Of a DNA stretch of 64,000 nt, positions 8,898 through 63,727 are shown piece by piece. Source of the DNA: Bacteroidales bacterium. Lineage in GTDB: Bacteria > Bacteroidota > Bacteroidia > Bacteroidales > VadinHA17. The notes below the pieces were generated by a model. That model did no database searches, was not told the DNA's origin, and saw only the letters and a list, made by a program, of their open reading frames with translations. The stretch's first letter is position 1; every line of letters begins with the position of its first letter. The stretch is from NCBI GenBank assembly GCA_021157415.1, contig JAGGWN010000109.1, positions 164 through 64,163 of the forward strand, given 5' to 3'. Made by a program: the position numbers and the translations under genes.

Positions 8898-8901
8898 TCT
8901 T

Positions 8902-10446: not shown

Positions 10447-10486
10447 AAAATATGTTTTTAATTAAAAAATAGTTGATTTCCGAAGC

Positions 10487-10494
10487 CAAAATTA
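10487..10494 (-). promoter_or_regulatory. Candidate Bacteroidota -7 promoter box (TAATTTTG on the minus strand) for the transporter-GH65 operon
   Basis: The plus strand reads CAAAATTA, which is TAATTTTG on the minus strand and matches TAnnTTTG. It lies about 41 nt upstream of the GTG start at 10446. This is a motif match only. Confidence 0.25.
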
Positions 10495-10652
10495 AAGATT
10501 CTCAGGTAAAATAAAACTCTTTATCCTCTTTATTTACAGGAAGATTCGTTTATTCAAGGAAAAAATCTCTTACATGTGTTGTTTCAAACGTTTTCGACCA
10601 ATGATAATAAAACAGAAAAAAATTAAAAAAAAAATGCAAAAAGCAGATGTCA

Positions 10653-32800: not shown

Positions 32801-33059
32801 TGGCCAGGGCTGACATGGAGTTGACCATGCGGGCGGCCAGTTCGGTATGGGGGCCTGCGAAGAGTGTGAAGAAACGCGCCAGGATCAGGAAAAAAGGAGC
32901 GCCCGGAGGGTGTCCCACCTCCAGTTTGAAAGCAGATGCGATGAACTCTCCGCAGTCCCAGAGACTGGCAGTTGATTCTATGGTGGATAAATAGACATAA
33001 GCAGCTATAACAAAAACAACCCAGCCTGTAATGTTGTTTATCCGTTTGAATTTTTTCAT
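29829..33059 (-). CDS. DUF2723-family giant polytopic membrane protein (GT-C-like glycosyltransferase fold) with a TPR-like C-terminal tail
   Basis: The N-terminus TGWVVFVIAAYVYLSTIESTASLWDCGEFIASAFKLEVGHPPGAPFF is the DUF2723 signature. There are more than 12 TM segments, then a soluble region of about 450 aa. I moved the start to ATG 33057-33059 (MKKFKRINN). Confidence 0.85.
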   Translation of the reverse strand: MKKFKRINNITGWVVFVIAAYVYLSTIESTASLWDCGEFIASAFKLEVGHPPGAPFFLILARFFTLFAGPHTELAARMVNSMSALASALTILFLFWTITHLARKIVNGDSGLSTGKTIAIMVSGVVGALAYTFSDSFWFSAVEGEVYATSSLFTAVIFWAILKWEESTDPKHADRWMILIAYLMGLSIGVHLLNLLAIPAIALVYYFKKYKPTTKGLVVVLSASFIVLVLIMYGIIQGLFKVSSQFELFTVNMLGLPYNTGLFLHMIILFGSLMTTIYLLLKNKDIKTILIFASTGVVLSGLPFISSSFFLDLIITTILVFAVIAIGKKSRQTLMTLITSLTMILIGYSSFALILIRANADPPLNENKPDNVFSMLAYIDREQYGTRPLFFGQYYNAPVTGLKKGKPTYIRRNGKYVISQYAQSYVYDPHATTIFPRMYSSQADHIKVYKQWGKVKGRKVQVTERNGTKKTIEVPTFGENLRFFFSYQLGFMYWRYFLWNFSGRQNDIQGLGGPLDGNWISGIKFIDEPRIGPTDNLPDKYVHNKGRNRYFMLPFLLGLLGLMVQWKKTPRDFWVVLLLFFMTGIAIVLYLNQTPNQPRERDYAYVGSFYAYSIWIGLGVLGLFYLFRKFLSESVSAVFAGVLAVSVPAIMGQQNWDDHNRSGRYTARDLAYDYLNSCEKDAVLFTNGDNDTFPLWYIQEVEGVRTDIRVVNLMLFNTDWYIDQMKRKVYDSDPLPLSLPQEKYLDGTNNMLYLVPNKSIKGYLNLKTAIDFLASDNPGTKLSLQGGERIDFLPAKKFSVPVNNATVVSNGTVSPSDADKIVSDLKIDVKKNYIMKSSMMVMDLLAHFNWKRPVYYVTGGHDDALGMEDYFQMEGFAYRLVPIKTPREDYINYGRVNTDRLYENLMHKFRWGRMNEPDVYLDYYTRRTINIIKVRNAFSRLAKSLAAEGKKDSAVAVLDHCMELLPKNKLPYDIFTVGMIDAYYQAGNNAKADTLAFDYVSDLKKELNYFYSFPPNLAGTIDYQKKVDLQIMQQISMACKPYHPETAKSIENDLNQYYRTYLELSGAGLQMAPGKK

Positions 33060-33210
33060 TTTTGTAATATTCAAGTTTATGATAACCGGAAAGGCCGACA
33101 AATTATTTTATTTTCATGACGAAAATAATGCTTTTTTTCATGCATGGTGGCAAAAGTAATATAAAAGGGTATTTTTGTTTTTTTCAAAGGTAGGATTACC
33201 GGATCACATT

Positions 33211-36153
33211 ATGAAAGGTAAGAAAAAAATATTTTGCCGGGGCAGCGGATTGACTATAATCTTTTATTTCTTGACAATCAACACATTTGCACAATTCTAT
33301 GATAACGGGCAGGATCCGGCAAGCCTGAAATGGAAACAAATCAATACGAAGCACTACCGGATTCTTTTTCCCGGAGATTTTTTATCCAAAGCACAGCACC
33401 TGGCCAATCTTTTTGAGTGCACCTATTCCTATGAAAATCATAGTCTGCACAGCATTCCGCGTAAAATAACCGTGATTGTTCATGATCAGTCTGTGGTTTC
33501 GAACGGTATGGTGGTATGGGCACCGCGAAGGGTAGAGTTATATACGGTCCCGGATCCGAACGCTTATCCTGATGATGCATTGGATCAACTCGCATTTCAT
33601 GAATTGCGACATGTAGTGCAGATGGAGAAACTGAATGTTGGTTTTACACGCATACTGAGTTATCTCGCAGGCGACATGGCAGCAGGTAGCATGGTGATTA
33701 TGGTTCCTCAATGGTACATGGAAGGGGATGCGGTTACGCAGGAGACCTTATTGTCTCATAGTGGTCGCGGCAGATTGCCTTCGTTTGAAAAGGGACTACG
33801 TGCTCTGACTCTGGAAAGGGGGAAGGCCTGGAATTATAATAAATCGCTGATGGGTTCCTATAAGGATTATGTTCCCGGAAAATATGAGTACGGTTATCAG
33901 GTGGTGGCTTATTCCCGATATAAATATGGAGCCGGCCTTTGGGATAAGGCTTTGTCGCAGGTGGCCGGAAAACCCTATTCCGTTAATCCGGTGAATTTGT
34001 CTCTTCGAAAACAGGCCAACCTGACCAAGAGAAGGTTGTATGATTCCGCTTTTTTTTATCTGCAGAGGGAATGGGCCAGGAAAGACAAAGAGAACGAAAT
34101 CACCCCTTTCAGAAAACTGAATATCCGTAAAAAGAAAGCCTTTGTCAGTTATCGTTTTCCGAGATATGTCAATGACTCACTGGTATTGGTGGAAAAATCA
34201 GGGATCGATCAGATCAACCAGTTTGTGTTGATCGATAGCAAAGGAAATGAACGTGTAATACATATTCCCGGTTATTATGAGCCGGTCAGATTGTCGGAAG
34301 CATCCGGAAAAATTGTCTGGGCAGAGACTATTTATGACGAAAGATGGTATAATCGGAGTTTTTCAGACCTTAAAATATATGATATAAAAAAACAAAAAGA
34401 ATACCGGTTAACACGGCGTGCCCGTTATTTTGCGCCTGATATTTCTCCAGACGGAAAGAAAATTGCTGCAGTGCGAATAGAGACAGATAACCGGAATTTT
34501 ATTGATGTTCTGAATGTTTCCAATGGACAAATTCTCCGGTCGTTTTCCCTTCCCGGAAACAGGACATTTCTCAAACCGACCTGGAAAAATAACTGCTCTT
34601 TACTGGTTATTGTCTTATCTGACCAGGGAAAAAGCATACAGGAACTGAACGTTCGAACCGGAATATGGCATGAATGGATACATCCAACCTTTTATGATAT
34701 TCAATCGGTAAGTGCTTCCGGGAAATATCTCTTTTTTCATGCCACTTATTCAGGGATTGATAATATTTATGCACTGGATACGGTAAGCAGTGACATCTGG
34801 CAGGTAACCCGTTCACGTTTTGGAGCCTCGGATGTGTGCGTATCACCAGACGGCAAAAAAATTGTCTATGATGATTATTCATCGAACGGGTATAATGTAG
34901 GTGAGATTCCGGTGGATCCTGCCGGCTGGACCCCCTTGGAGAAAACGAAGGATATGTCCCTGCATATGTATGATTCATTATCGGACCAGGAAAAGGGGGT
35001 GATCCGTAAGCGGAATCTGCCCGACTCGATGTATTGGGTAAAACCATATTCCCGGTTGACGCATTTAATAAAAGTTCATAGCTGGCTTCCTTTTTATTTT
35101 GATTATGATAATATCAGTCTTGAGAATATTCCTGTTTATCCGGGCGTGGTCTTATATTCTCAGAACTATCTGAGCACACTTGAAGGTTCCCTGGGATATG
35201 CATACAGGGAGCGTGAGCATCAGTTTATCACCAGTGTGACTTATCAGGGACTGTATCCTGTTTTTAAGTTCATGGAAGAATACGGGGGTTCTCCGATGGT
35301 ATATCAGGACTCTGTAGCCACCCCTTTGCCGGAACACCTTCCACCCCGGAGCAATTTTACTATGCAGGCATATGTTCCGATAAACCTTACCACCAACCGG
35401 TATGACCGGGGATTACGGCCTTCGGTGGATTTTCATTTTACCAACAGTTATGTCTGGTCGGATCCATTGCATGCATACAATAAAAACAGGATATTCCTTT
35501 CCTACAGGTTGTATTACTATAATTTACTGAAGATGAGTCATCGGGATATACTGCCGCGTCTTGGATTTATGCTGGATACGAGATTTCTGCATGCTCCGTG
35601 GAATAAAGAAGAATACGGAACCATGGCCTGTTTCCTGGGTAAACTGTATTTGCCCGGGATCATGAAACACCATACTCTTTCACTGCAGGGAGGCTATGAA
35701 GAACAAAATCCGGCCAGGTTTTATTTTCTGAATCAGCTTCATTATCCCCGGGGATATCACTACTGGTTGTCTGAAAAATTAAAAACCTTGCATGTTCATT
35801 ATGATTTTCCTATAATATATCCTGATTTTTCCTTGGGATCATTGCTTTATATACCCCGTTTATCGGGGACTATACTGTATGAAATGGCACAAGGAGAAAA
35901 AAGTTACAATTACCAAAATCATGATTTTTTAAATCTTAGGAATTTCCAAAGTTACGGCGGGGAACTTACGGTAGATTTCAGTGTTTTCAGGATAGCTTTT
36001 CCTTTAAGCCTTGGTTTTTGGACAGTATTTAATCCCGACATGGGTCGTGTGAATACCGGTTTTGATTTCAGTATCAATGTTTACGGCTTACGGATAAACC
36101 GTCAGCGCAGGCCGTTGTTGCCCGGGAGCATTGTTACAAGATTGCAGGAATAA
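33211..36153 (+). CDS. Large secreted protein: HExxH gluzincin-like domain + PD40/TolB-type beta-propeller + C-terminal putative beta-barrel
   Basis: Signal peptide (start moved to ATG 33211). FHELRHVVQ is followed 36 residues later by WYMEGDA, giving an HExxH...E arrangement as in peptidase-MA-type folds. PD40-like repeats are present (FAPDISPDGKKIAAV, VCVSPDGKKIVYDD). The last 380 aa or so have an alternating aromatic strand pattern. I recall no named family. Confidence 0.6.
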   Translation: MKGKKKIFCRGSGLTIIFYFLTINTFAQFYDNGQDPASLKWKQINTKHYRILFPGDFLSKAQHLANLFECTYSYENHSLHSIPRKITVIVHDQSVVSNGMVVWAPRRVELYTVPDPNAYPDDALDQLAFHELRHVVQMEKLNVGFTRILSYLAGDMAAGSMVIMVPQWYMEGDAVTQETLLSHSGRGRLPSFEKGLRALTLERGKAWNYNKSLMGSYKDYVPGKYEYGYQVVAYSRYKYGAGLWDKALSQVAGKPYSVNPVNLSLRKQANLTKRRLYDSAFFYLQREWARKDKENEITPFRKLNIRKKKAFVSYRFPRYVNDSLVLVEKSGIDQINQFVLIDSKGNERVIHIPGYYEPVRLSEASGKIVWAETIYDERWYNRSFSDLKIYDIKKQKEYRLTRRARYFAPDISPDGKKIAAVRIETDNRNFIDVLNVSNGQILRSFSLPGNRTFLKPTWKNNCSLLVIVLSDQGKSIQELNVRTGIWHEWIHPTFYDIQSVSASGKYLFFHATYSGIDNIYALDTVSSDIWQVTRSRFGASDVCVSPDGKKIVYDDYSSNGYNVGEIPVDPAGWTPLEKTKDMSLHMYDSLSDQEKGVIRKRNLPDSMYWVKPYSRLTHLIKVHSWLPFYFDYDNISLENIPVYPGVVLYSQNYLSTLEGSLGYAYREREHQFITSVTYQGLYPVFKFMEEYGGSPMVYQDSVATPLPEHLPPRSNFTMQAYVPINLTTNRYDRGLRPSVDFHFTNSYVWSDPLHAYNKNRIFLSYRLYYYNLLKMSHRDILPRLGFMLDTRFLHAPWNKEEYGTMACFLGKLYLPGIMKHHTLSLQGGYEEQNPARFYFLNQLHYPRGYHYWLSEKLKTLHVHYDFPIIYPDFSLGSLLYIPRLSGTILYEMAQGEKSYNYQNHDFLNLRNFQSYGGELTVDFSVFRIAFPLSLGFWTVFNPDMGRVNTGFDFSINVYGLRINRQRRPLLPGSIVTRLQE

Positions 36154-50258: not shown

Positions 50259-53060
50259 TCAATAAATCACCACTTTATGAGAGTATATCTCTTTTGGGGT
50301 CTGTATCATTATAAGGTAGAGCCCGGGAGGCACGTTTCGGTTACCTCCGGAAAGGGAGAGGGAGATATCATTCTTTCCGGGATTCACATGAAAAAATTCA
50401 GTATAACGGGTACTGCCATCCATGCTCAGTAACTTTATTTGTGCAGGCTGATTTGTAATTGCCGAAAGAGACAAATGCAAAACAGATTGTACCGGGTTTG
50501 GATAAACCTCCAAACGGCTATTCTCGTTTTTTTGCGGGCGGATTCCTGCCGTAATGTCCGGAGGGGTGAGTTTTTTAGTTGTATAAATTCTATAGGCTCC
50601 GGGCGAGAAGGTGAAATGATAGTCAGGATTTGTGATTACCAGAGAATCTCCGCTAAAATATTCGTACCAGGTTCCTGTGGAAGGGAATGTTAAGGTAGCG
50701 GTTTTCTCAGTCACATCAAAGTTCCCGGTTATCAGGAGGTTCATGCTGGTGTCACGGATGGTGATCGTTTTTATCGCATCTGAGGTATTCAATATAAAAT
50801 CAGAACTCTGAAAAACGGGTTGCTCTTTTTTTAAACGGATCAGTGCTCCCATTACCTGATACAGTTTTCTCCTTTTCATATCGTTGTAATAATCCCAGCG
50901 AATGGGTTTATTCCCTGTGCGTCCGTTGTATTCGATCGAATAATCATATCCCATCTCTTCAAATTGCCAGATCATTTTAGGTCCCGGCACAGTAAAGAAA
51001 AAAGCAGAAATCAATTCAATTCGTTGGAGGGCTGTGGGAAGATTTTTGATGTTGTAGTCTCCCGAGGCATTCCCATAGGTCAGATTATTATACATGAGCC
51101 TTTCTTCATCATGACTCTCCATATAACCCACGATGTTCGGGCTGGACCACTCTCTGTTTTTCCATGAGATCCACCCAAAGTCCCAGTTACCACAAGGACC
51201 TGACGGGTAACCCATGGATGCCTGACCATATTGGCAGTTCAGGTTTCCCCATAGCAACATCCCATAGGCGGACAGTTCCTTTTCTTCGCTGTTTTCCGTA
51301 AAATGTTCAAGGATCAGAATCGCATCGTTTTTTACTTTCCGGATGGAATCAGCGTAGTTTTCCAATATCCGAATGCGGGAAGCATCGTAAGCCCATCCGT
51401 TTCCCGGCGTATTGGTGAATCCTTTGGTGAAGTCAAACCGGTATCCGTCCATATGGTATTCGTTGATCCAGTACCGGGTTACACGGATGACAAAATTTTT
51501 TGTTGCCGGACTTTCATGATTAAAATCATAACCCCAGCTATAATCCGTATTGGGAGAGGTTGTATTGTACCAGGGGTTTTCCGGGGAAGGTTCTCCCCAT
51601 TGTCCGGCATCAGGATCGAAATAAAGTTTTACCAAAGGGCATTGGCCCATGGAATGATTCAAAACAATGTCCTGAATTACTGCGATTCCAAGGGCATGGC
51701 AAGTGTCGATAAAAGCTTTCAGATCATTTTTTGGGCCGTAATACTTATCCGGGGCAAAATAATAATCGGGATTGTAGCCCCAGCTTTCGTTCCCCTCAAA
51801 TTCATTGATAGGCATCAGTTCGATAGCATTAATTCCAAGTCTTTTCAGGTATTCCAGTGTGTCGATAAGTGACCGGTAGGTATGTTGCGCGGTAAAATCC
51901 CGAACTAATAATTCGTAGATCACAAGATTATTGTTTTTCGGAGGTTGGAACCCGGTATGTTTCCATGGATAAGGCGTTTGTGCAGTTTGCAGTATGGATA
52001 CAATGCCTTCGGTTTTGCCTGTGGGATAAGGCTTCAGCCCCGGATAAACCCATTTGGGAATCCAGGGGTCGTTCCACGGATCCAGAATCTTGTCGGCAAA
52101 GGGATCGCCGATGCGGATTGTCCCGTCCACCAGATACTGAAAAGAATATTCCTGTAACGGCTGCAGATGGTTGATACGGATCCAGTAATGTTTTCCGTCA
52201 GGGGTACGTTTCATATAACTACTGTCACAGGGCAGCCAGTTGTTAAAATCCCCGATGACAAAAACATACTCTTTAAAAGGAGCATAAAGAGAAAGAATTA
52301 CGGAGGAATCGTTCAGATAATTTATACCTTCTGAGATTCCTTCGGGAAGGTCTTCCGTAACCACGGGAGGGCGTACGTAAAAGTAGAAAGAATCGGTTAC
52401 GGAGCCGGTGATGTCATAAGCAGTAAAATAAGCCGTATGACCTCCCGTTTGGTACATTTCCAGGTTTAGGGTTAAATCACTATTGGTTGTACCTGAAATA
52501 TAGGTTTTATCTATAAACAGATTCATGCTGTCGGCTTTGGTGGCAGTGGCGTCCATGTACAAAGTGTCTCCTGTTTTCAAAATTAGTGATGATTCTTGTG
52601 GTATTAGGATGCTCACATTCAGCCCTTCGGGAAAGACATTCACGAAAAGATCGGAAGTTTGTTTGGTGGCATCGGCACTTCGGAAAACAAAAGCCATCTT
52701 TGCTATTGTGTCGTTTGTGTTTACACTGTAAAAAGTACGGATATCAGGCGAGATATCCAGTTCGTAGGTATAATTTCCCAGATAGATGAGTTGTGGCTGT
52801 GCAGAATTATCCCCCCACGACCCGATCACGTTTTGCCATCCTTCTTTTCCTTTCAGGATTACACCGGTATGGGTGTAGATATCTCCTGTAAAGTTTTTCA
52901 GGGCACCGGAGACCTTGTCGGAATGGAAATAAACTTTTACAGGTTGTGTTTCAACAGGAACTTCCGGGTCGGTAGTAACCACCTGTGCCTGAAGAGAAGA
53001 AAAAGCCAGAAAAAAAGCCAGGAAACTAAAAATGCTTTTTGAAAGATCTGTTCGTTTCAT
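50259..53060 (-). CDS. GH13-family alpha-glucan hydrolase (pullulanase/amylase-like, with CBM48-like module) carrying a T9SS C-terminal sorting domain
   Basis: Signal peptide and N-terminal beta-sandwich regions. An E-set/CBM48-like segment is present (GDFNNWLP...DGKHYWIRI). GH13 regions: AVIQDIVLNHS, DGYRFDFTKGF, ILEHFT and YMESHDEE. The C-terminus LEVYPNPVQSVLHLSLS...PPGLYLIMIQ....HKVVIY is a type-A T9SS CTD. Confidence 0.85.
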   Translation of the reverse strand: MKRTDLSKSIFSFLAFFLAFSSLQAQVVTTDPEVPVETQPVKVYFHSDKVSGALKNFTGDIYTHTGVILKGKEGWQNVIGSWGDNSAQPQLIYLGNYTYELDISPDIRTFYSVNTNDTIAKMAFVFRSADATKQTSDLFVNVFPEGLNVSILIPQESSLILKTGDTLYMDATATKADSMNLFIDKTYISGTTNSDLTLNLEMYQTGGHTAYFTAYDITGSVTDSFYFYVRPPVVTEDLPEGISEGINYLNDSSVILSLYAPFKEYVFVIGDFNNWLPCDSSYMKRTPDGKHYWIRINHLQPLQEYSFQYLVDGTIRIGDPFADKILDPWNDPWIPKWVYPGLKPYPTGKTEGIVSILQTAQTPYPWKHTGFQPPKNNNLVIYELLVRDFTAQHTYRSLIDTLEYLKRLGINAIELMPINEFEGNESWGYNPDYYFAPDKYYGPKNDLKAFIDTCHALGIAVIQDIVLNHSMGQCPLVKLYFDPDAGQWGEPSPENPWYNTTSPNTDYSWGYDFNHESPATKNFVIRVTRYWINEYHMDGYRFDFTKGFTNTPGNGWAYDASRIRILENYADSIRKVKNDAILILEHFTENSEEKELSAYGMLLWGNLNCQYGQASMGYPSGPCGNWDFGWISWKNREWSSPNIVGYMESHDEERLMYNNLTYGNASGDYNIKNLPTALQRIELISAFFFTVPGPKMIWQFEEMGYDYSIEYNGRTGNKPIRWDYYNDMKRRKLYQVMGALIRLKKEQPVFQSSDFILNTSDAIKTITIRDTSMNLLITGNFDVTEKTATLTFPSTGTWYEYFSGDSLVITNPDYHFTFSPGAYRIYTTKKLTPPDITAGIRPQKNENSRLEVYPNPVQSVLHLSLSAITNQPAQIKLLSMDGSTRYTEFFHVNPGKNDISLSLSGGNRNVPPGLYLIMIQTPKEIYSHKVVIY

Positions 53061-53071
53061 GAAATGTTGTT

Positions 53072-54919
53072 TTAACGCAGTTCGAGGATCAAGGGAGTAT
53101 GGGGAAGAACATCAATGACCGGGTGAAGAAGATAGGATTTATGATCAAAAATATTCACTCCATAGGTGTATTTCCCGGTGATTTCATCAAATCTTCCGGT
53201 ATTTAAATGGGTCGTTTTCTTATTCTTGTTGAGGATAACCATAATTGTTTTTTCCGGTATTGATCTAAAGAAAACATATACTCCGTTTTCAGGCATAAAA
53301 TGAATAAGACTTCCTGATTGAACAGCAGGTTCATTTTTCCGCCAATTCAACAACCTTTTCATTTCATCCTGTATTTTTTTGACGGCGGGATTTATATTTT
53401 GCCCGGTAAATGCATTGGCAATATCTCCCGGCCATCCCCCTGGAAAATCTCTGCGAATGGTGCCGTGGTCATTGTCTTTTCTGTTGCTCATAAGCAGCTC
53501 GGTACCGTATAAAATCTGGGGAATACCCCGGGTGGTCAGCAGGAAAGCCATTCCCAGCCGGAAGAGAGCTGTGTCGTTGTGGACTTGCCTAAAAAAACGA
53601 TTCATATCATGATTATCCCCGAAAATGACCAGGTTATCGGGGGCAGGATAGACAAAATCCCGTGCCAGGACATCATAGAGCTTTCTCCATCCGGCATTCC
53701 AGTTTTCTTTTTCTGTCAGACTTTGTGACAGGGCCTGCTGTAGCGGAAAGTCCATAAGACCGGGAAGGCCGGGTTTGTATCCATCCCTGTTGATTTGTCC
53801 TTTTTGCCAATAAGAAACGAAGGATGGATGGGTATTCCATTCTTCTCCTACGATCATAAAATGCGGGTATTCCTCCAGGATCCTGCGTGTCCACCGTGCC
53901 ATGAAATTTTTATCAGGATAAGGATAGGTGTCCATACGAATTCCCTGAAGACCGGCATATTCTATCCACCAGATGCTGTTCTGGATCAGGTACGTGGCTA
54001 AAAAAGGATTTTTCTGGTTTAAGTCAGGCATGGTAGGGACAAACCATCCCTTCGTCAGTTTGATACGGTCGGCCCGGGAGGCGTGAGGATCCATATTAAC
54101 CGAATGAATATGGTTGGTGATAAAATAGTCGGGATACTCATTGATCCAGTCAGAGGAGGGAAGGTCTTTCATCCACCAGTGCTCCGATCCGCAATGATTG
54201 AAAACCATATCCATGATAAGTTTGATACCGTTTATTTGGCATGCATGTCCCAATTGTCTGTACAGATCGTTGGTTCCCAGCCGGGGGTCCACCCTGTAAA
54301 AATCGGTAATGGCATAACCGTGATAAGATTGTTCGGGTTGGTCGTTTTCCAGAACCGGGGTGGACCATAATGCCGTAAATCCCATTTCTTTAATGTAATC
54401 CAGATGATCTATGATTCCTTGAATATCACCTCCGTGTCTGCCGTAAGGTTCTTTACGGTCCAGGCCTTCTTTCATACTTTTCACCTCATCATTGGCAGGA
54501 TCCCCGTTGGCAAAACGATCAGGCATCAATAAGTAAATTACATCCGAAGGACCAAAGCCATCCCGGGAGACAGATCCTGTTTTCCGTTTTTTTAATGCAT
54601 AGACGTATCTGTAAAATCTTTTCCCGCCCTTAGAAAAGTCGATATAAAAGTTTCCCGGGCTGATACCTGATTTGACAGACAGATGCAGAAACAAATAATT
54701 TGGATTATCGGTTTTTGAAACAGAGTCTATTGTAATGCCAGAATATGCAGTAAGAACAACCTGAGATTTTGCTATGTCCTTACCATGGACCAGGATCTGA
54801 AGATACGGGTTTTTCATTCCCACCCACCAGGAAGGAGGTTCGATATGATCGGGAATGTTTTGTCCGTAGATTGAGACGAAAACAAAAGAAAGCAATAAGC
54901 ACAAATACGTACGAAACAT
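53072..54919 (-). CDS. GH13 cyclomaltodextrinase/neopullulanase-like enzyme (SusA-like, periplasmic)
   Basis: Signal peptide. N-terminal domain EPPSWWVGMKNPYLQILVHG (cyclomaltodextrinase N-type). GH13 regions: LIMDMVFNHCG, QGIRMDTYPY, IVGEEW and FGDNHDMNR. Confidence 0.85.
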   Translation of the reverse strand: MFRTYLCLLLSFVFVSIYGQNIPDHIEPPSWWVGMKNPYLQILVHGKDIAKSQVVLTAYSGITIDSVSKTDNPNYLFLHLSVKSGISPGNFYIDFSKGGKRFYRYVYALKKRKTGSVSRDGFGPSDVIYLLMPDRFANGDPANDEVKSMKEGLDRKEPYGRHGGDIQGIIDHLDYIKEMGFTALWSTPVLENDQPEQSYHGYAITDFYRVDPRLGTNDLYRQLGHACQINGIKLIMDMVFNHCGSEHWWMKDLPSSDWINEYPDYFITNHIHSVNMDPHASRADRIKLTKGWFVPTMPDLNQKNPFLATYLIQNSIWWIEYAGLQGIRMDTYPYPDKNFMARWTRRILEEYPHFMIVGEEWNTHPSFVSYWQKGQINRDGYKPGLPGLMDFPLQQALSQSLTEKENWNAGWRKLYDVLARDFVYPAPDNLVIFGDNHDMNRFFRQVHNDTALFRLGMAFLLTTRGIPQILYGTELLMSNRKDNDHGTIRRDFPGGWPGDIANAFTGQNINPAVKKIQDEMKRLLNWRKNEPAVQSGSLIHFMPENGVYVFFRSIPEKTIMVILNKNKKTTHLNTGRFDEITGKYTYGVNIFDHKSYLLHPVIDVLPHTPLILELR

Positions 54920-54929
54920 AGTGATTGCA

Positions 54930-56078
54930 TTAAAACTGATAGGATAAATTCATAAAGGTTATGGCGTTAATGGTGTTGCCACTGAAATCAAAAAAGGTAT
55001 TACAATCCCACGCCGAACCTGTTCCGCCAGGAGTTTTCATTTGGGATGTAATCCAGTCGGGTTCCCAGTAAAAAATTCCTTTTCCCCCTCCGTCAATGAT
55101 TTCCTGCGTTAAAGTTACAAGATAGTTATATTGGCCCTGACGGTTGGCCGGATAATCCGGTAAAAGTTTATTCACATCAATAATATTTCCCAGATTATCT
55201 GCGTTTTGGAGGGTCCATGGATAGGCTGTTTCCATCACCATTACCTCTTTTCCGTATTTCTTGCGGAGTTGGTCCGTATAGTTGCTGATGTTTGCCAAAG
55301 GAACATCTGACCACATATAATAATAAGAAAAACCGATTATGTCGAAATTACCCAGCCCTTTTTCCTGAAGTCCGTCAAACCACGTTATTGCATTTTCCGG
55401 TTGAGCTATATGTAGGATTATTTTGGGATGAACCGTACTTTCCGATCCTGCGTCCCGGATAGCCCGGATAGCGGCATTTATCAAATAAATAAAATCTCCG
55501 GTATGATGCCAACGGTCACCCTGAGGCAGTAAAAAGCCCGGGTTGATTTCATTTCCGGGCTGGACATACTCCGGCATTAAATGGAGCTGATCCAGTTTTT
55601 TCAAGGAGAGATAGGTGTATTGGTAGATACTGTCGTGCAATGTTTTCAGATCAAGATCCTGCCAGGCCACGGGGATGATCTGATGGCCGGGATCAGCCCA
55701 TGTGTCTGAATAATGGATGTCGAGGCATACCTGTAACCCGGATTTTTTGGCACGGGATATTCCAAGTTTCACATCATCAAAATCATTGTACATCCGCGAT
55801 TCTTCAGGCTTGTATATTTCTTTGGTCCATACGGGGTTGTGAAAAAGGCGGAACCGGATAACATTTGCGCCATGAGTCTTGAAGATCATATAAGGATCTT
55901 TAACATATCCGGAATCGCGAAAGATGCCTCCGTGTTCCAGGATCTGGTTGGCAAAGGACAAATCAGCGCCCATAACAAACTGATCCGGAGTGTAGAATGT
56001 TCTTTGGGTACCGGATTCTTCCTTGTTGCACCCGGCAGCCAAAAGTATCAATAATATAGAAATGAAAAGGTAATTCAT
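54930..56078 (-). CDS. GH53 arabinogalactan endo-beta-1,4-galactanase (lipoprotein)
   Basis: Lipobox LLAAGC. GH53 signature strings: GADLSF, ANVIRFRLFHNP, DIHYSDTWADP, VQPGNEINPG (acid/base), GFSYYYMW, VMVMETAYPW (nucleophile) and GIFYWEPDWI. Confidence 0.88.
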   Translation of the reverse strand: MNYLFISILLILLAAGCNKEESGTQRTFYTPDQFVMGADLSFANQILEHGGIFRDSGYVKDPYMIFKTHGANVIRFRLFHNPVWTKEIYKPEESRMYNDFDDVKLGISRAKKSGLQVCLDIHYSDTWADPGHQIIPVAWQDLDLKTLHDSIYQYTYLSLKKLDQLHLMPEYVQPGNEINPGFLLPQGDRWHHTGDFIYLINAAIRAIRDAGSESTVHPKIILHIAQPENAITWFDGLQEKGLGNFDIIGFSYYYMWSDVPLANISNYTDQLRKKYGKEVMVMETAYPWTLQNADNLGNIIDVNKLLPDYPANRQGQYNYLVTLTQEIIDGGGKGIFYWEPDWITSQMKTPGGTGSAWDCNTFFDFSGNTINAITFMNLSYQF

Positions 56079-56133
56079 GATATAAACAGTCAGTCAAAAA
56101 AATAAATGTAAAATAAGAAGAATTGTGGAAAAG

Positions 56134-56170
56134 AAAAAGCGGTTAACTTTTCGGGTTAACCGCTTTTTTT
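56134..56170 (-). terminator. Rho-independent terminator after the SusE/F-like gene
   Basis: GCGGTTAAC (56139-56147) pairs with GTTAACCGC (56155-56163) around a 7-nt loop. It is flanked by A5 and T7 runs and lies 13 nt after the stop at 56183. Confidence 0.65.
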
Positions 56171-56182
56171 AATACACCAACT

Positions 56183-57283
56183 TTAATTTTTCATGATTTT
56201 GTATGTGTAAACAGGTCCGCTCAGATCCAGGGTGATGGTATAGTTTCCGTCGGCTGCAATCGGGATGTTGGCACCACCTGCATCCAGTTTACGGTCGTCT
56301 CCGTCATCTCCATAATTCAAAGCCCAGTCGTCATTGGCTCTGAATTTGATTTCTCCGGCAACCAGGTCAAGAGTAATGGTCCAGACATTATTGACCTTAT
56401 CATAGGTCATATCAACATCAACGCTCCAGTCGTAAGGAGGTACGGACGAACCTATCAGACCCCAGTCTGTTTTCGTGTATGTATAAGTGGTTACATTCAG
56501 ATCGGCTTTGATAAGGAAGTATCCTGGTCCACCCGGGACTTTTATATTATTGCCTCCCCAGTTACCTATCTGCAACGTTCCGGACATTCCGGATGCATCA
56601 GGATCACCAATAGTATTATCCTGTTCCCATGCGGGAACCTTGAGGAATTTTAACTCCGTTGTATCCTGTGAAAACCACAAATATCCTTCATAGACACCAT
56701 TGTCTTTAACCGAATAAATGACGGTATTGGTATTGGCAGGATCCCATTCGCCCCAGGCTGGGTTCCAGTCATCCTGGTAACTCCCCGGTACGTAAAGTTT
56801 GGGATAATCAATCACTTCTTCAAACGGTGTGATGTTCATGGAAATGGGTTGCGAGTAAAGTGTATCCACATCCTTGTGGATAGCTGCGGTAACCCTGACT
56901 TGTACATTAGCCGCTTCTCCCGGAAAAGCATTAAGAGTCAAAAGAGCATTGTTGACCGTTCCCTCCAGGACATCCATACTGGTAGTGTTGGTAATCCCCA
57001 GAATGGCGGGATTGGCAAAATTGTCAGCAGCCAAATCAAGTTCCAGGGTATAGAAAACAGAAGCCTGAAATCCAAAATCTGCAGGGCTCCAGCTGAAAGT
57101 AGTCATGATATTGTCTTCGGTAGAGTCTGTCAGAATATAGCTACTCCCATCGGCGGGGGCAGTTATCTCGGGCGCAGTATATACACCGACCACTGGTTCT
57201 CTCACTTCTTTTTCACATGAAACCAGAAAAGCAAGACCGGCAATCAGTGATAAAATCGGATATATTTTCTGTTTATTCATCAT
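56183..57283 (-). CDS. SusE/SusF-like outer-membrane glycan-binding lipoprotein
   Basis: Lipobox LAFLVSC. It has a SusE-like N-terminal domain (FSWSPADFGFQASVFYTLEL) followed by two beta-sandwich modules ending GEIKFRANDDWALNYGDDG...YTYKI. It is in the canonical position after susD. Confidence 0.75.
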   Translation of the reverse strand: MMNKQKIYPILSLIAGLAFLVSCEKEVREPVVGVYTAPEITAPADGSSYILTDSTEDNIMTTFSWSPADFGFQASVFYTLELDLAADNFANPAILGITNTTSMDVLEGTVNNALLTLNAFPGEAANVQVRVTAAIHKDVDTLYSQPISMNITPFEEVIDYPKLYVPGSYQDDWNPAWGEWDPANTNTVIYSVKDNGVYEGYLWFSQDTTELKFLKVPAWEQDNTIGDPDASGMSGTLQIGNWGGNNIKVPGGPGYFLIKADLNVTTYTYTKTDWGLIGSSVPPYDWSVDVDMTYDKVNNVWTITLDLVAGEIKFRANDDWALNYGDDGDDRKLDAGGANIPIAADGNYTITLDLSGPVYTYKIMKN

Positions 57284-57307
57284 CTTATTTTTTTTAGCAG
57301 TTAAAGA

Positions 57308-59509
57308 TTAATATCCCGGATTCTGAGTAAGGTTTGGATTGGCAGCAATATCTGAAGAAGGAATTGGGAAGACATCATATTTGCTGTCTGTTGATTTTCC
57401 TTCTTTTATACCGCCTTTCCAGGCCCAAACGTAATCTGTGTTACTGAATTTCCCGAAACGTACCAGGTCCGTTCTTCTGTATCCTTCCCAGAACAATTCT
57501 CTGGCCCGTTCGTCCAGGAGGAAGTCCAGGGTAAGGTCGTCGGCTGTAATATCTGCCGAATTATCACCATAAGCCCGTTCCCGTAATGCGTTAACATAAC
57601 CGAGGGCTGTTCCCAGGTCTCCGCCGGAGCCCCCGCGTAAAACCGCTTCGGCATACATCAGATAAGCATCTGCCAGACGGAACAATGGGAAATCGGTATC
57701 AGGGAAGGTAAGGTCTTTGCCTGATGCTCCTGTAGATGTTATGTTTTTGAATTTTGTGATGGCATATCCGTTGGTAAATTCAAACATATCGTCTATATCC
57801 AGGGATTGACCATCGGTATAGAACATACTCCTGCTGTCGGATGCAAATTTTTCTATTGTATATGTATAGTCCGGGGCTCCCAGTTTCAGCGAGATTTTAT
57901 ATTTCCCTGCTTCAGGGATACTGATGTTGGACCCTCCTTCTTCGAGGATACCATCAGCGTCATTATCCCCATAATTCAGAGCCCAATCATCGTTGGCGCG
58001 GAACTTGATCTCTCCTGTGTTTAGCTCAAGAACAACTGTCCAGAGACCGGTAGCCGGGTCATAGGTCATGTTCTGATCCGAATCCCACTGATCAGCGGTA
58101 GCATCACCAATGACACCCCAGTCGGTTTTAACAACCGAATAGATGCGTGTAGTGGTATCCACATCGATTTTGTAATAGCCTGCTTCGGGAACAACAATGT
58201 TGTCTCCGTTTTGATCCAGTGTGCCGTCAGCCCCGTTATCGCCGAAGTTATAATCCCAATTGGGATAATATGAAAATTTGAATTCCGTATTGGCATCTGC
58301 AAAATACAGGTATCCCTGATAGTGATTATCACTGTTTACCGAAGCAAGTACGGTAGTGGAGTCTTCCGGATTCCATCCCTGATAGGAGCCCGGAACAAAT
58401 ATGAGCGGGTAATTTGAGGATCCTTTAGCTGACACCACAGTGCTTTTCAGGTTGGAGATGTCCATAAATTTCCCGACGAATTGTTTGGTGGCTCTGAGAC
58501 CTGCCCACCCTCCGTCGATACCGAAGTCGGCGGGGTTCATAGAGCCTCCGACCGAGGCATGGATGATGAAGGTGGTTCCTCCCCAGGTTTTGGTATGTAC
58601 CCCGTCAAAGGTAATGGGGAAAATGACTCCCTGTGCCTGGTCATTGTCAGCTAAAAACAAGTTTTGATAAGAAGGATCAAGCGTGTAACCGGCATCAATG
58701 ACTTTTTTAGTGTAGGTAATTACATCGGAATAATGATCTTCTCCAACGTAAACTTTAGCATTAAGATAAAGTTTAGCCAGTAACATCCAGTCAGCAGCCT
58801 GATCAGCCCTGCCATATTCATTGGTACGAGGTTCCGGCAACTTATTCTCTATATCAAGCAATTCTGATTCGATATAGTCAAACAAATCCTTTTTACTGAT
58901 TTGTTTCGGAAAGAAAGCACCTACTTTGTCTTTTTCCGTAACAAAAGGAACACTTCCGAACAAATCCAGAGCATGCCAGTAACTTAAAGCTCTCAAGAAT
59001 CTGGCTTCGGCACGGTATTCACGAATCGTTTGTTGATCGGATTCTGAAATTCCGTTTTCTTTCATTTTATCATCCGTGGACTGACGCAGGAATTCATTAC
59101 ATAAGGAAACCTGATAAAAGATCCGGTAATAAAGATTGGTGATAAACTCATTGCTTGCCGACCAGTCCTGCTCATGATAGTCCCGCAGGTTTCCGTCATT
59201 CCAGGCGATAATAGCTTCGTCGGTAGGCAGTTCCTGGGCATACCAGTATGCGCGAAGATATTGACCGAATCCTTCATCCAGTCCACTGAGGTCTCCCATT
59301 CCATGAGGGCCTTGCTGCCCGCTGACAGCGAGGCCTGCATACAATTTGGCAAGCACCTGTTTGTAGGATTCGGGGTTCTTGTAAACTGTAGCAGAAGTAA
59401 CCACATCCGGATCGATAGGAATCGTATCCAGATCTTTTGTACATGATGCCAATGCCAGTATCAGGGCAAATGCACCAATCATCGAAATTTTCAGCTGTTT
59501 TTTATTCAT
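57308..59509 (-). CDS. susD: SusD/RagB-family nutrient-binding lipoprotein with an internal SusE/F-like insertion of about 200 aa
   Basis: Lipobox LALASC. SusD hallmarks: YKQVLAKLYAGLAVSG, EARFLRALSYWHALDLFG, FPLFRLADAYLMYAEA and RARELFWEGYRRTDLVRF. At 733 aa it is about 150-200 aa longer than typical SusD proteins. The extra segment is about aa 355-555. Confidence 0.85.
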   Translation of the reverse strand: MNKKQLKISMIGAFALILALASCTKDLDTIPIDPDVVTSATVYKNPESYKQVLAKLYAGLAVSGQQGPHGMGDLSGLDEGFGQYLRAYWYAQELPTDEAIIAWNDGNLRDYHEQDWSASNEFITNLYYRIFYQVSLCNEFLRQSTDDKMKENGISESDQQTIREYRAEARFLRALSYWHALDLFGSVPFVTEKDKVGAFFPKQISKKDLFDYIESELLDIENKLPEPRTNEYGRADQAADWMLLAKLYLNAKVYVGEDHYSDVITYTKKVIDAGYTLDPSYQNLFLADNDQAQGVIFPITFDGVHTKTWGGTTFIIHASVGGSMNPADFGIDGGWAGLRATKQFVGKFMDISNLKSTVVSAKGSSNYPLIFVPGSYQGWNPEDSTTVLASVNSDNHYQGYLYFADANTEFKFSYYPNWDYNFGDNGADGTLDQNGDNIVVPEAGYYKIDVDTTTRIYSVVKTDWGVIGDATADQWDSDQNMTYDPATGLWTVVLELNTGEIKFRANDDWALNYGDNDADGILEEGGSNISIPEAGKYKISLKLGAPDYTYTIEKFASDSRSMFYTDGQSLDIDDMFEFTNGYAITKFKNITSTGASGKDLTFPDTDFPLFRLADAYLMYAEAVLRGGSGGDLGTALGYVNALRERAYGDNSADITADDLTLDFLLDERARELFWEGYRRTDLVRFGKFSNTDYVWAWKGGIKEGKSTDSKYDVFPIPSSDIAANPNLTQNPGY

Positions 59510-59527
59510 CGTTTTACTCTTTTTCCG

Positions 59528-62479
59528 TTAAAACTTAGCACTAACCCCCAACAGGAAAGTACGGGGTCTGGGATAAACATTATTGTCTATGCCATTGATT
59601 ACTTCGGGATCAAGTCCTTTGTAACGGGTGATTAAAAATGCATTTTGTACTGTACCGTAAACTCTGAGCTGAGCCCATTTTATCTGAGTTATATTGTATC
59701 CCAGGGTGATATGATCCATCCTGAGGAAGGATCCGTTTTCAACATAATAGTCCGAGAAATATTTCGGATTTTCGAATTTAGAATCCAGTAAACTGGTGGT
59801 TACATTCGACAGATAACCGACGGAATTGTATAAACTACTATAGGTCCCATGATTGGAAAACATGTTGTTATAAACATAATTCCCCAGACTGATCCGGCCA
59901 GCGAACGAGAAATCAAAGTTTTTGTAAGTAAATAGAGAGTTGAATCCCATAAAGACATCCGGTGCGGCCTTTTTATAATGATAACGGTCATCTACTGTGA
60001 TCTGGCCGTCGTTATTGCGATCGACGTATAACCCTTCAAGAGGATTTCCGTTTTTATCATATGCCTGTTCGTAAACATAAAAAGCATTGGCCGGATAACC
60101 TACGCTATGAATCTGGATTGTGTTGCCAACCCCCCCGGAGATGCCGCCGGTAAAGACTCCCAAATAGGAGGGATCGTCGGTGGCAGTCAGTTTTGTGATC
60201 TCGTTTTTGTTGTAACTGGCATTGAAACCTATATCCCATTTCATGACTGTTTTTGAAATGGCAGTAGCGTTGATTGCAAACTCAACTCCTTTGTTTGTCA
60301 GGTCCCCGACATTGGTCAGGATTTGGTTGGTCAGATTGGTTCCTGCCGGTACAGGAATGAAGTTCAACAAATCACTGGTTTTCCTGTAATAAGCATCCAG
60401 ACTTCCTGTGATCCTGTTGTTCAGAAAACCGTAATCCAGACCGACGTTATAAGTGGTGGTTTCTTCCCATTTCAGGTTCTCGTCATATCCTTCGGGGCGT
60501 AGCGTAGTGATATAGCTGTTCCCAAATTGATACTGGGCATTGTCAAGACTATAGGTATAACGGGGCAGATAGGGATAATCTCCTCCTATGTCCTGTTGTC
60601 CTGTGATCCCATACCCCAGACGAAGTTTCAGGGTATTCATTGCGTCGGATTTGAAAAAAGGTTCCTTGGCCATATCCCAGGCAAACGCCAGTGAAGGGAA
60701 TAAACCCCAGCGATTTTCCGGAGCAAACCGGGAAGACCCGTCATCACGAAGGGTAAAAGTAAACAGATAACGTTCATTAAAAATATAATTAATACGTCCG
60801 AAAAAGGAGACCAGATAATTTTCCGTGATATAGTCGGAATTTTCATTGATAAGAGTTTCTGCCACATTGGTTGAGTAGGTGGTTCCTTTTCTCCAGTAGT
60901 GCTGCCAGGAATATCCGGCAGTAACATCCAGATGACTGTTAACAGATGCCAGGTCCTTGACATAGTTAAAGTAAAAATCCAGCAAGCTGTTTTTCTTGTT
61001 TTGTGTATAGTGGGTTTTATTGCCTCCACCGTTCAGAGGATCATAAGACCAGGCTGCATTTTCCGGCACGAAATTATTTCCGTCACTTTTGGATATGTCG
61101 TAACCCAGATTCAATTTGGCTGTCAGTTCGTGAAGAAAAGGTAATCTGTAATCAAACTGTGCATTTCCCAGACTCCTGGAAACATTCGAACGATTATCAG
61201 TCATTTCTAACTGTGCCAATGGATTGGACGGAGCTATGGTGATAGGGTCTCCGTTAGGCTGTGTCCACGTGAAATATCCTCCGTACGGGCTATTCTGATC
61301 ATATACAGGCTGTGTTGGATCAAAAGCTATGGCTGAGCCGATAGCGCCCCAGTTTGCAAAACGGTTTTTAATGTACATTCCTTTCACATTCAGATTTATG
61401 TTTAAATCTCCGTTTAAAAGGGATGGATTCAGGCTTAAAGCTCCTGTAGTACGGTTAAGCCCCGAGGTTTTCAGTATTCCGTCCTGATCCGTATATCCGA
61501 TAGAAACACGATAGGGAAGAGCTTTAAGACCTCCGGAGAAACTAAGGTTATGATCCTGACTGAAGGCGGTTTTGAAGATAACATTTTGCCAGTCTGTATT
61601 GGCCGTTCCCAGTAGATTCAGTGCGTTGGGGTTTGCTTCAAAATGTGACTGTATAATGTTTTTAAATTGATCGGCAGAAAGTACGCTTATTTCTCCCGAA
61701 CGGGTGGCCCAGTTTACATTTCCGTTATAGGTCAGGGAGAATGGTTGACCTTTTTTCCCTTTCTTTGTAGTAATCAGAATTACTCCGTTGGAAGCCCGGG
61801 AGCCATAAATAGCCGTGGCCGAAGCGTCCTTCAAAACAGTAAACGTCTCAATGTCGTCGGGGTTGATTGTGTTCAAGGGGTTCCGCATGCCGGAAACACC
61901 TTCATTGTCTATAGGAACTCCGTCAATCACGATCAGTGGATCGTTGCTTGCCGACAGGGACGATCCTCCACGGATACGGATCATGGCCCCTGTTCCCGGG
62001 GCCCCGCCGGCGTTGGTGATCTGAACACCGGCAATTTTGCCGGAAACCAGATCCTGGGGCGAGGTGATCGCTCCGCGGTTAAAGTCTTCGGACGTTACGG
62101 CAGCCACAGAACCGGTGGCATCTTCTTTTTTCACTGTACCGTAACCAATCGCTACTACCTCCTTCAGTGTAACTTCGCTGAACTGGAGGGAGACATTAAT
62201 AACTGTCTGGTTATTTACCTGTACTTCCTGTGTGGTATAACCGACAAACGAGAATACCAGGGTAGCCCCCTTTTGTACCGAAAGTGAATAATTCCCTTCC
62301 GCATCTGTTACCGTACCAATGGTCGTTCCTTTTACTACCACGTTTACACCGGGTATGGGAGAACCGTCGGAAGCGTCGGTAACCTTTCCTTTTACAGCAA
62401 TTTCCTGGGCATACAACAACCCGGAGAGCATTATGCCGCCGAGAAGCAATGCCAACTTGCTTATGAATCCTCTTTTCAT
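59528..62479 (-). CDS. susC: SusC-type TonB-dependent transporter
   Basis: Signal peptide. Carboxypeptidase-regulatory-like domain (VKGKVTDASDGSPIPGVNVVVKGT..GTVTDAEGNYSL). Plug domain (IRIRGGSSLSASNDPLIVIDGVP, FTVLKDASATAIYGSRASNGVILITTKKG). Barrel of about 700 aa ending GVSAKF. Confidence 0.92.
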   Translation of the reverse strand: MKRGFISKLALLLGGIMLSGLLYAQEIAVKGKVTDASDGSPIPGVNVVVKGTTIGTVTDAEGNYSLSVQKGATLVFSFVGYTTQEVQVNNQTVINVSLQFSEVTLKEVVAIGYGTVKKEDATGSVAAVTSEDFNRGAITSPQDLVSGKIAGVQITNAGGAPGTGAMIRIRGGSSLSASNDPLIVIDGVPIDNEGVSGMRNPLNTINPDDIETFTVLKDASATAIYGSRASNGVILITTKKGKKGQPFSLTYNGNVNWATRSGEISVLSADQFKNIIQSHFEANPNALNLLGTANTDWQNVIFKTAFSQDHNLSFSGGLKALPYRVSIGYTDQDGILKTSGLNRTTGALSLNPSLLNGDLNINLNVKGMYIKNRFANWGAIGSAIAFDPTQPVYDQNSPYGGYFTWTQPNGDPITIAPSNPLAQLEMTDNRSNVSRSLGNAQFDYRLPFLHELTAKLNLGYDISKSDGNNFVPENAAWSYDPLNGGGNKTHYTQNKKNSLLDFYFNYVKDLASVNSHLDVTAGYSWQHYWRKGTTYSTNVAETLINENSDYITENYLVSFFGRINYIFNERYLFTFTLRDDGSSRFAPENRWGLFPSLAFAWDMAKEPFFKSDAMNTLKLRLGYGITGQQDIGGDYPYLPRYTYSLDNAQYQFGNSYITTLRPEGYDENLKWEETTTYNVGLDYGFLNNRITGSLDAYYRKTSDLLNFIPVPAGTNLTNQILTNVGDLTNKGVEFAINATAISKTVMKWDIGFNASYNKNEITKLTATDDPSYLGVFTGGISGGVGNTIQIHSVGYPANAFYVYEQAYDKNGNPLEGLYVDRNNDGQITVDDRYHYKKAAPDVFMGFNSLFTYKNFDFSFAGRISLGNYVYNNMFSNHGTYSSLYNSVGYLSNVTTSLLDSKFENPKYFSDYYVENGSFLRMDHITLGYNITQIKWAQLRVYGTVQNAFLITRYKGLDPEVINGIDNNVYPRPRTFLLGVSAKF

Positions 62480-62713: not shown

Positions 62714-63727
62714 ATGGCAGTAACCATAAAAGATATAGCACGGCAACTTGGGATTTCCCCGTCCACCGTTTCACGGGCTTTAAAAGATCATCCGGATATC
62801 AGTCAGGAAACCAAAAACGCCGTCAATGAACTGGCCAGGAAATTACATTATCAACCCGATCCGGTAGCACTGAGTCTGAAAAAAGGCCAAAGCCATACCA
62901 TTGGTGTGATCGTGCCGGAGATTGTTCATTATTTTTTCTCTACGGTGATCAGCGGAATTGAAGATGTTGCGTATAAATCCGGATACCGGGTCGTGATCTG
63001 TCAGTCCAATGAAGATTATAAACGGGAAGTGGAGAATGTGGACGCACTTCTTTACAGTCGGGTTGACGGGATACTGGTTTCGGTTTCAAAAAAAACGATG
63101 AACCTGGATCATCTGAAAAAGGTTCAGGAGCAACATGTTTCCCTGGTAATGTTTGACCGCATTGCAGAGGAATTGGAGACGGACAGGGTATTTGTGGATG
63201 ACAGGGATGCTGCTTACAATGCGGTGAAACATCTTATTGTGAATGGGTATAAAAATATTGTTCATTATGCCGCGCCCCAGCACCTGGGTATAGGAAGACT
63301 GAGAAAAGAAGGTTATGTGAATGCCCTGGAAAAGTATCAGATCCCTGTCCGGGAAGAGTATATTATTAAATGTGATACGATGGACGAGGCACAGCAAATC
63401 ACCGCAGAGACCATGAAGTTACATCCACGGCCTGATGCTTTTTTCTGTGTCAATGACATGACTGCTGCCGGAGTGATGAAAGTTTTGAAAAAGTTAAACT
63501 ACCGCATTCCGGAAGATGTGGCAATCGTTGGATTTACAAATGGAGAGATTTCCAATTTGCTTACTCCTGCTATTACGTCGGTGGAACAGCACGGATTTGA
63601 AATCGGCAAAGAAGCGGCGCAATTAATACTTGACCGGCTTTTGCATCCGGAAAAGGATATCCCTCCCCGCCAAAAAGTGATAAAAACTACCCTGGTAGTT
63701 AAAGGTTCTACGGTGAAAAATATTTAG
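62714..63727 (+). CDS. LacI/GalR-family transcriptional regulator
   Basis: N-terminal HTH VTIKDIARQLGISPSTVSRALKDHPDIS, followed by a periplasmic-binding-protein-like sugar-sensing core (GVIVPEI, DGILV, VNDMTAAGVM). Confidence 0.9.
   Translation: MAVTIKDIARQLGISPSTVSRALKDHPDISQETKNAVNELARKLHYQPDPVALSLKKGQSHTIGVIVPEIVHYFFSTVISGIEDVAYKSGYRVVICQSNEDYKREVENVDALLYSRVDGILVSVSKKTMNLDHLKKVQEQHVSLVMFDRIAEELETDRVFVDDRDAAYNAVKHLIVNGYKNIVHYAAPQHLGIGRLRKEGYVNALEKYQIPVREEYIIKCDTMDEAQQITAETMKLHPRPDAFFCVNDMTAAGVMKVLKKLNYRIPEDVAIVGFTNGEISNLLTPAITSVEQHGFEIGKEAAQLILDRLLHPEKDIPPRQKVIKTTLVVKGSTVKNI

Follow-up and report, generated by a model that had tools for sequence, protein, structure and literature searches.

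The arrangement of the auxiliary surface glycan-binding proteins (SGBPs; SusE/F, SGBP-B) around the SusCD transporter, as well as their contribution to it, is a matter of ongoing study in the model Bacteroides systems. In Bacteroides thetaiotaomicron (Bt), the starch-site contacts of SusD are W98, Y296, W320, R81, D73, N101, and D64 (SusCD cryo-electron microscopy preprint, bioRxiv 10.64898/2026.09.16.752182). In the 'looped' and 'open' alpha-glucan SusDs of marine Flavobacteriia, loop variation near the binding site correlates with the composition of the polysaccharide utilization locus (PUL) and with the presence of SusE (Beidler et al. 2024, PMC11093988). The X25 platform of the Ruminococcus bromii protein Sca5 consists of W620, K654, W661, and N684-687 (PMC9112005). 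Here we describe a SusD-family lipoprotein encoded in a 64,000-nucleotide stretch of a Bacteroidales bacterium (contig JAGGWN010000109.1, positions 164 to 64,163; hereafter the window). Judged from sequence and structure models, its fold is interrupted by two tandem X25/SusE-F-type beta-sandwich modules. The gene and its parts are as follows (aa, amino acid positions of the protein).

57308..59509, minus strand: SusD-family lipoprotein, 733 aa and stop (open reading frame (ORF), Pfam, PDB, NCBIfam, AlphaFold, and Foldseek)
58457..59509, minus strand: N-terminal SusD block, aa 1-351 (PDB matches at aa 42-351 and aa 26-355)
58415..58456, minus strand: flexible linker into the insert, aa 352-365, 14 residues (low predicted local distance difference test score, pLDDT)
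58124..58414, minus strand: module A, aa 366-462, X25/SusE-F-type beta-sandwich (Pfam X25_BaPul_like and SusF_SusE, pLDDT 84-95, Foldseek, conservation)
57845..58123, minus strand: module B, aa 463-555, X25/SusE-F-type beta-sandwich (best Pfam SusF_SusE stretch at aa 466-567, Foldseek, conservation)
57308..57844, minus strand: C-terminal SusD block, aa 556-733 and stop (PDB matches at aa 557-733; Pfam SusD_RagB match reaching the C-terminus)

The ORF is an uninterrupted 733-aa frame, and its lipoprotein signal peptide, MNKKQLKISMIGAFALILALASC, carries the lipobox LALASC with the cysteine C23, which is invariant in 84 homologues. A first-pass annotation, made from the letters of the window, had read positions 57845-58447 (aa 355-555 of this ORF) as an insert of about 200 residues separating two blocks of SusD on a single polypeptide. 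It had also predicted that the Pfam matches to SusD would lie on both sides of a SusF_SusE match, and the searches confirmed both points. The matches in the PDB fell into two separate blocks, namely aa 42-351 and 557-733 for the Bacteroides vulgatus protein 3jys, and aa 26-355 and 552-733 for Bt SusD (3ck7). The segment between the blocks is ~205 residues long here, as opposed to ~12 in 3JYS and ~35 in Bt SusD. Pfam assigned the protein to SusD_RagB (120.7 bits, cutoff 23.1) and SusD-like_3 (39.2 bits, cutoff 27), and SusF_SusE matched in two stretches within aa 366-567 (59.9 bits, cutoff 27.5). The best NCBIfam match was NF033071, the starch-specific SusD family, which scored 462.5 bits in two stretches and thus stayed below the 725-bit cutoff; the 733-aa protein is no equivalog of Bt SusD.

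The AlphaFold model of the full protein (pLDDT 85.4, predicted template modelling (TM) score 0.71) shows the insert as all-beta and joined to a SusD core through a linker that is disordered at aa 353-364. The linker has a pLDDT below 50 at aa 353-364 of the full model, as do residues 1-12 of a model of the insert alone. When the core was compared with known structures using Foldseek, it reached TM scores of 0.90 to 3jys and 0.83-0.85 to Bt SusD. The insert leaves the core at a surface loop ~17 residues past the tryptophan equivalent to W320 of Bt SusD. The N-terminal block comprises the signal peptide, the lipobox cysteine C23, the helices resembling tetratricopeptide repeats (TPRs), and the ligand-site equivalents R86, D78, W103, W309, and W335. 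In the PDB alignment, R81, D73, W98, and W320 of Bt SusD are identical here (R86, D78, W103, and W335, respectively), while Y296 is replaced by W309, so that five of the seven contact residues were counted as kept. Across 84 homologues bearing the insert, R86, D78, W103, and W335 never vary, and the conservation of W309 reaches at least 90%.

The insert itself was compared with the SusE-like protein encoded immediately downstream, to which the first-pass annotation had aligned it nearly position for position. A BLASTP comparison of the two ORFs aligned aa 366-554 of the SusD protein with aa 159-365 of its neighbor at 45% identity (E 3e-47), and every segment outside the insert was insignificant; all the shared strings that had been quoted were found. 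When the insert alone was used as a query, as had been proposed, its best matches, apart from a few SusD fragments, were stand-alone SusE-domain lipoproteins of ~345 aa with 53-60% identity. Its identity to the inserts of other SusDs is 47-80%, and the neighboring SusE-like protein, at 45%, is among the least similar sequences. Modules A and B form an internal repeat with the common motif E-x-K-F...W..N.GD..ADG.L...G.NI..PEAG.YKI. A Pfam match of the insert to the X25 pullulanase domain was sub-threshold. Both a lipobox and an N-terminal SusE domain (PF14292) are present in the neighboring 366-aa protein and lacking from the insert, which is therefore a pair of SusE-type modules rather than a SusE protein.

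The structural evidence points in the same direction. The insert is modelled with a pLDDT of 84-95 within the full protein and of 92.8 when modelled alone. The best Foldseek match of the insert-only model was the tandem X25 pair of R. bromii Sca5 (7rpy, E 1.1e-7). SusF was also found (4fe9, E 4.6e-6, TMq 0.51 over both modules), and the further top matches were the starch-binding domain of AmyP and an X25-containing pullulanase, all of the best PDB matches being starch binders. Each module carries a set of residues that are invariant or at least 90% conserved, W379/K411/W418/N437 in module A and W475/K502/W509/N528 in module B. In both, the lysine stands seven residues ahead of the second tryptophan (K-x6-W) and the asparagine follows ~19 residues later. 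The same K-x6-W spacing is found in Sca5 between K654 and W661, and the W, K-x6-W, and N positions are conserved alike in the SusD inserts and in the free SusE modules.

The distribution of this architecture was examined by a GTDB scan using one genome per species, and the 80 best loci were analyzed. The insert was recovered in 79 of them. In all 80, the match covered nearly the whole query, starting at residues 1-22 and ending at residues 721-733, and one locus was shortened by the end of its contig. The best locus belongs to an independently assembled Bacteroidales metagenome-assembled genome (MAG; JANTHB010000004), in which the protein is 97% identical and the locus is the same gene for gene. 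The carriers are labelled as Prolixibacteraceae (Draconibacterium, Tangfeifania, Maribellus, and Mariniphaga), Lentimicrobiaceae, Saprospiraceae, Lewinellaceae, and others. Searching with the full protein gave no fewer than 120 clusters formed at 90% identity; their members are 730-740 aa long, have the same set of domains, and show 62-86% identity. They include homologues in the complete genomes (3.7-6.1 Mb) of Draconibacterium orientale, Maribellus sediminis, and Mariniphaga anaerophila. The same insertion is thus present in related genomes, which the first-pass annotation had suggested surveying, but the rarity implied there did not hold, since at least 79 species of several families carry it. 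Where the homologues are named, they are called only "RagB/SusD family" or "hypothetical". The co-occurrence of the SusD and SusE/F domains is already implicit in their precomputed Pfam lists, in which PF26123 (DUF8037) and PF26120 (CBM_1st_SusF) are also present.

To place the origin of the insert, 79 inserts were put into one neighbour-joining tree together with the C-terminal halves of 57 SusE proteins. All but one of the inserts (78 of 79) formed one pure clade, the stem of which was very short. The median identity was 55.6% between inserts and 56.0% between SusE proteins; an insert and its cognate SusE shared 53.1%, compared with 51.0% for an insert and a non-cognate SusE. From the clade and these identities, we infer that the two-module unit was copied into SusD once, early in this type of locus. 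After this, the insert has evolved independently of the neighboring SusE gene. A string of 17 aa, GEIKFRANDDWALNYGD, is common to the SusD insert and the neighboring SusE; the DNA encoding it is identical at 42 of 51 positions and all 9 differences are synonymous. No long DNA repeat linking the SusD and SusE genes of the window was found. As the differences in the string are all synonymous and the repeat is lacking, the resemblance of the two proteins is best read as old, selected protein similarity. We considered whether the insert and SusE had recently undergone gene conversion or arisen by DNA duplication, and rejected this on the grounds of these 9 synonymous differences out of 51, the lacking shared repeat, and the near-equal identity to cognate and non-cognate SusE. 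The insert has 53-60% identity to SusE proteins from other organisms, as against 45% to its own neighbor, and is therefore an old paralogue. Hence, the part of the initial reading that put SusE/F-type modules in a SusD loop stands, while a recent graft from the adjacent gene does not.

The insertion site was then compared across a wider set of SusDs. An exhaustive search of representatives of 50%-identity clusters gave 851 SusD relatives (E up to 1e-30); of the best 150, 133 allowed the segment at the insert site to be measured. Most of these (113 of 133) have fewer than 40 residues there. A single X25 module is present in a few relatives (P0242, 635 aa; P0244, 631 aa; and P0345), and two modules occur in one full-length cluster among the 133 measured. 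Other relatives, P0271, P0268, and P0251 among them, carry inserts of 60-185 residues without SusE/F similarity. Because close relatives contain zero, one, two, or three modules or unrelated inserts, the loop appears to be a hot spot of insertion.

A tree of the SusD cores only (neighbour-joining, without support values) united the two- and three-module forms in one clade with the three-module form nested inside. The nearest neighbors of this clade were the insert-free P0243 and the one-module P0242. The remaining one-module proteins were placed elsewhere, which suggests independent gains.

Three-module forms were seen in SusDs of 844-855 aa (P0015, P0016, P0024, and P0084), which have three SusE/F-type modules at the same site; where such a SusD is encoded at positions 8001-10547 of locus L081, a SusE gene still follows it. 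In P0271, P0268, P0251, P0263, P0249, and P0284, the inserts at this loop are 83-185 residues long and show neither SusE/F similarity nor a Pfam match.

The genomic setting of the SusD gene is a contiguous set of minus-strand genes at 50259-62479, which forms a starch/alpha-glucan PUL according to Pfam and the ORF calls. Besides the SusD gene listed above, it comprises the following genes, together with a divergent regulator.

62714..63727, plus strand: LacI-family regulator, divergent from the PUL (Pfam LacI, Peripla_BP_1, and Peripla_BP_3)
59528..62479, minus strand: SusC-type TonB-dependent transporter, 983 aa (Pfam CarbopepD_reg_2, Plug, and TonB_dep_Rec_b-barrel)
56183..57283, minus strand: SusE-like surface glycan-binding lipoprotein, 366 aa (Pfam SusE, 72.8 bits; SusF_SusE, 38.3 bits)
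54930..56078, minus strand: glycoside hydrolase family 53 (GH53) lipoprotein, 382 aa (Pfam Glyco_hydro_53, E 1.8e-96)
53072..54919, minus strand: GH13 enzyme resembling cyclomaltodextrinase/neopullulanase, 615 aa (Pfam Alpha-amylase, Cyc-maltodext_N, and Cyc-maltodext_C)
50259..53060, minus strand: GH13 enzyme of 933 aa that ends in a sorting domain for type IX secretion (Pfam Alpha-amylase, Por_Secre_tail, and weak CBM_48)

The SusC gene lies directly upstream of the SusD gene with an end-to-start gap of 18 nucleotides, a pairing that recurs in the related loci listed, and the LacI-family regulator occupies the same position in related loci. The SusE-like protein has an N-terminal SusE domain followed by two modules paralogous to the SusD insert. 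The order LacI-SusC-SusD(insert)-SusE-(GH53)-GH13-GH13 is found again in the 25 loci listed, where a SusE-like gene follows SusD wherever the contig continues. In four loci of the Draconibacterium/Mariniphaga type (L007, L014, L015, and L018), the downstream SusE-like protein has 365-373 aa and matches that of the window in the N-terminal domain only, its C-terminal half having diverged past a BLAST E of 1e-8. Short SusE ORFs of 178 and 290 aa were seen in L005 and L008, respectively.

The GH53 gene (54930-56078, minus strand; endo-beta-1,4-galactanase family) stands in a locus otherwise devoted purely to alpha-glucan. The related loci L001, L004, L005, and L019 have it too, and it is missing from many others. 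Genes for a GH65 protein (maltose phosphorylase family) and a major facilitator superfamily (MFS) transporter lie at 6582-10446 on the minus strand, ~50 kb from the PUL. The same pair is found directly beside the LacI regulator of the PUL in the three-module locus L081 (1-4551), and the pair in the window is probably part of the alpha-glucan pathway of the PUL, the genes of which lie apart here. Elsewhere in the window, a 992-aa ORF (33175-36153, plus strand), for which no Pfam match was obtained at E 1e-5, adjoins the gene of a 1090-aa TMEM260-like protein (29829-33101, minus strand), and a 528-aa protein (27519-29105, plus strand) has an N-terminal caspase (Peptidase_C14) domain.

Taken as a whole, we consider it quite probable that the protein is the SusD lid of an alpha-glucan PUL in which a loop has been replaced by a linker and two starch-binding-type modules. 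Its likely function would be the multivalent capture of alpha-glucan on the transporter lid itself. The SusD core would still bind malto-oligosaccharide at the canonical site, and each inserted module would add a starch-binding platform, or both would form one extended platform. A flexible tether would thereby carry one or two extra polymer-binding platforms on the subunit above the pore. The lid could then act as a multivalent device, keeping polymeric alpha-glucan in place at the SusC entrance as the surface GH13 enzymes cleave it, and a higher avidity for starch, glycogen, or pullulan in polymeric form would be expected. Insertion into SusD would replace the membrane attachment that a free SusE gets from its N-terminal domain and lipid anchor, and the separate SusE protein would be retained alongside.

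Other explanations were weighed against this one. The window probably derives from a MAG, since the closest genome to it is one, and a paralogous gene adjoins the SusD gene, as might be the case if a chimeric contig or a missed frameshift had fused SusD and SusE/F genes. However, SusD sequence flanks the insert on both sides in frame, which an end-to-end join cannot yield, the GC content is even over both junctions (0.44-0.48), and the insert and SusE share no DNA repeat. The same architecture recurs in many independent assemblies, complete genomes among them, with 79 of the 80 best species loci in GTDB and no fewer than 120 clusters of proteins carrying it; misassembly was therefore rejected, and we give an artefact of assembly or gene calling a negligible chance; with this, the single-polypeptide claim of the first-pass annotation holds. 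The inserted modules could also be real and non-binding, serving as a spacer or as a docking element that holds the SusE-like protein or the GH13 enzyme anchored by the type IX secretion system beside the transporter. The N-terminal domains of SusE-type proteins are non-binding, and a separate SusE is always retained, so that binding in cis might be redundant. Isolated X25 modules of R. bromii failed to bind as well (PMC9112005). Yet the tryptophans, K-x6-W, and asparagine are equally invariant in the SusD inserts and in the free SusE modules, so the same constraint acts in both settings, and the structures nearest to the insert are without exception starch modules that bind ligand. A purely spacing or docking role therefore seems unlikely to us.

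A shift of the modules to another glycan, such as beta-1,4-galactan, by which SusD would recognize two substrates, is brought to mind by the GH53 lipoprotein gene of this locus and of L001, L004, L005, and L019. Many insert-bearing loci are without GH53, though, all the other enzymes of the locus are GH13 (to which the relatives add GH65 and GH97), and the insert keeps the features of alpha-glucan binders, which makes such a shift highly improbable. Several observations nevertheless count against the capture of alpha-glucan by the lid and its inserted modules. The mapping of the W/K/W/N residues onto the X25 ligand contacts rests on spacing and conservation. A direct search of the insert sequence against PDB chains returned noise and did not reach SusE or SusF, and profiles of the modules reached only BT3088 SGBPdex in the PDB. 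In the core, two of the seven Bt SusD contacts are not conserved, D64 being replaced by H69 and N101 standing opposite G106 or N107 in the alignment. How many sites there are is also uncertain, as the X25 modules of Sca5 form one shared site and do not bind singly (PMC9112005).

A broader idea is that SGBP-B-type modules in cis represent a distinct, recurrent design of SusCD, in which a single loop beside the ligand site accepts entire folded domains and has been colonized independently several times, by one, two, or three X25 modules as well as by unrelated domains. The modules would move with the lid and, during its closure, hand the polymer on to the SusD site and from there to SusC. We hold this idea tentatively and think it rather doubtful. 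If it were true, these loci would offer a natural experiment on the positioning of auxiliary binding proteins around SusCD, as well as a ready scaffold for engineering transporter specificity. For environmental Bacteroidota, the present architecture means that two SGBP-B-type modules are covalently fixed on the lid in at least 79 species, with the free SusE kept. It makes testable the roles of lid proximity and avidity, the number of binding sites needed, and the tolerance of the loop after the W320 equivalent to foreign domains. It is also relevant to annotation, as the length and the split hidden Markov model matches of such SusDs might be taken for errors.

We found no account of a SusD into which SusE/F or X25 modules are inserted in the literature searched, in which subscription journals were thinly covered, so that a description may exist. 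There is no such description in a 2026 review of glycoside transporters, in the 2024 classification of 'looped' and 'open' SusDs, or in the 2026 SusCD cryo-electron microscopy preprint. The parts, SusD and the X25 modules of SusE/F, are known, and a carbohydrate-binding module, CBM58, inserted into SusG sets a precedent; the combination of SusE/F modules with the SusD fold is apparently undescribed and widespread.

In comparison with the described systems, the window protein resembles Bt SusD (3CK7-3CKC) and the B. vulgatus SusD-superfamily protein 3JYS in being a lipoprotein with the TPR-like helical fold (TM 0.83-0.90). With Bt SusD, it also shares a gene position directly after SusC and the residues W98, W320, R81, and D73, with Y296 changed to tryptophan. 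It differs from both in the ~205 extra residues that replace their loops of ~35 and ~12 residues, respectively. The insert is similar to Bt SusE and SusF (PF16411; SusF 4FE9) as a tandem of beta-sandwich modules of the starch-binding type, which both the Pfam and Foldseek matches indicate, even though the PDB searches gave no direct sequence match to them; unlike these proteins, it has neither a lipid anchor nor the PF14292 domain and is held at both ends inside another protein. The SusG alpha-amylase offers a parallel in the CBM58 of its domain B, a starch-binding module that interrupts a loop of an outer-membrane Sus protein (PMC11267923), but there the host is an enzyme with one module of a different CBM family, whereas here it is the transporter lid. 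The best structural match, the tandem X25 pair of R. bromii Sca5/Sas20 (7RPY), likewise has two modules in tandem, and a Trp/Lys/Asn platform that the conserved residues of the insert may parallel; it belongs to a Gram-positive amylosome scaffold protein, and its two modules form one shared clamshell site. The 'looped' and 'open' SusDs (PMC11093988) similarly vary in a loop near the binding site of alpha-glucan SusDs, but this loop has ~17 residues, in contrast to the folded modules described here, and may be a different one. The architecture of the window protein is a variation on a well-known system rather than a system of a new kind.

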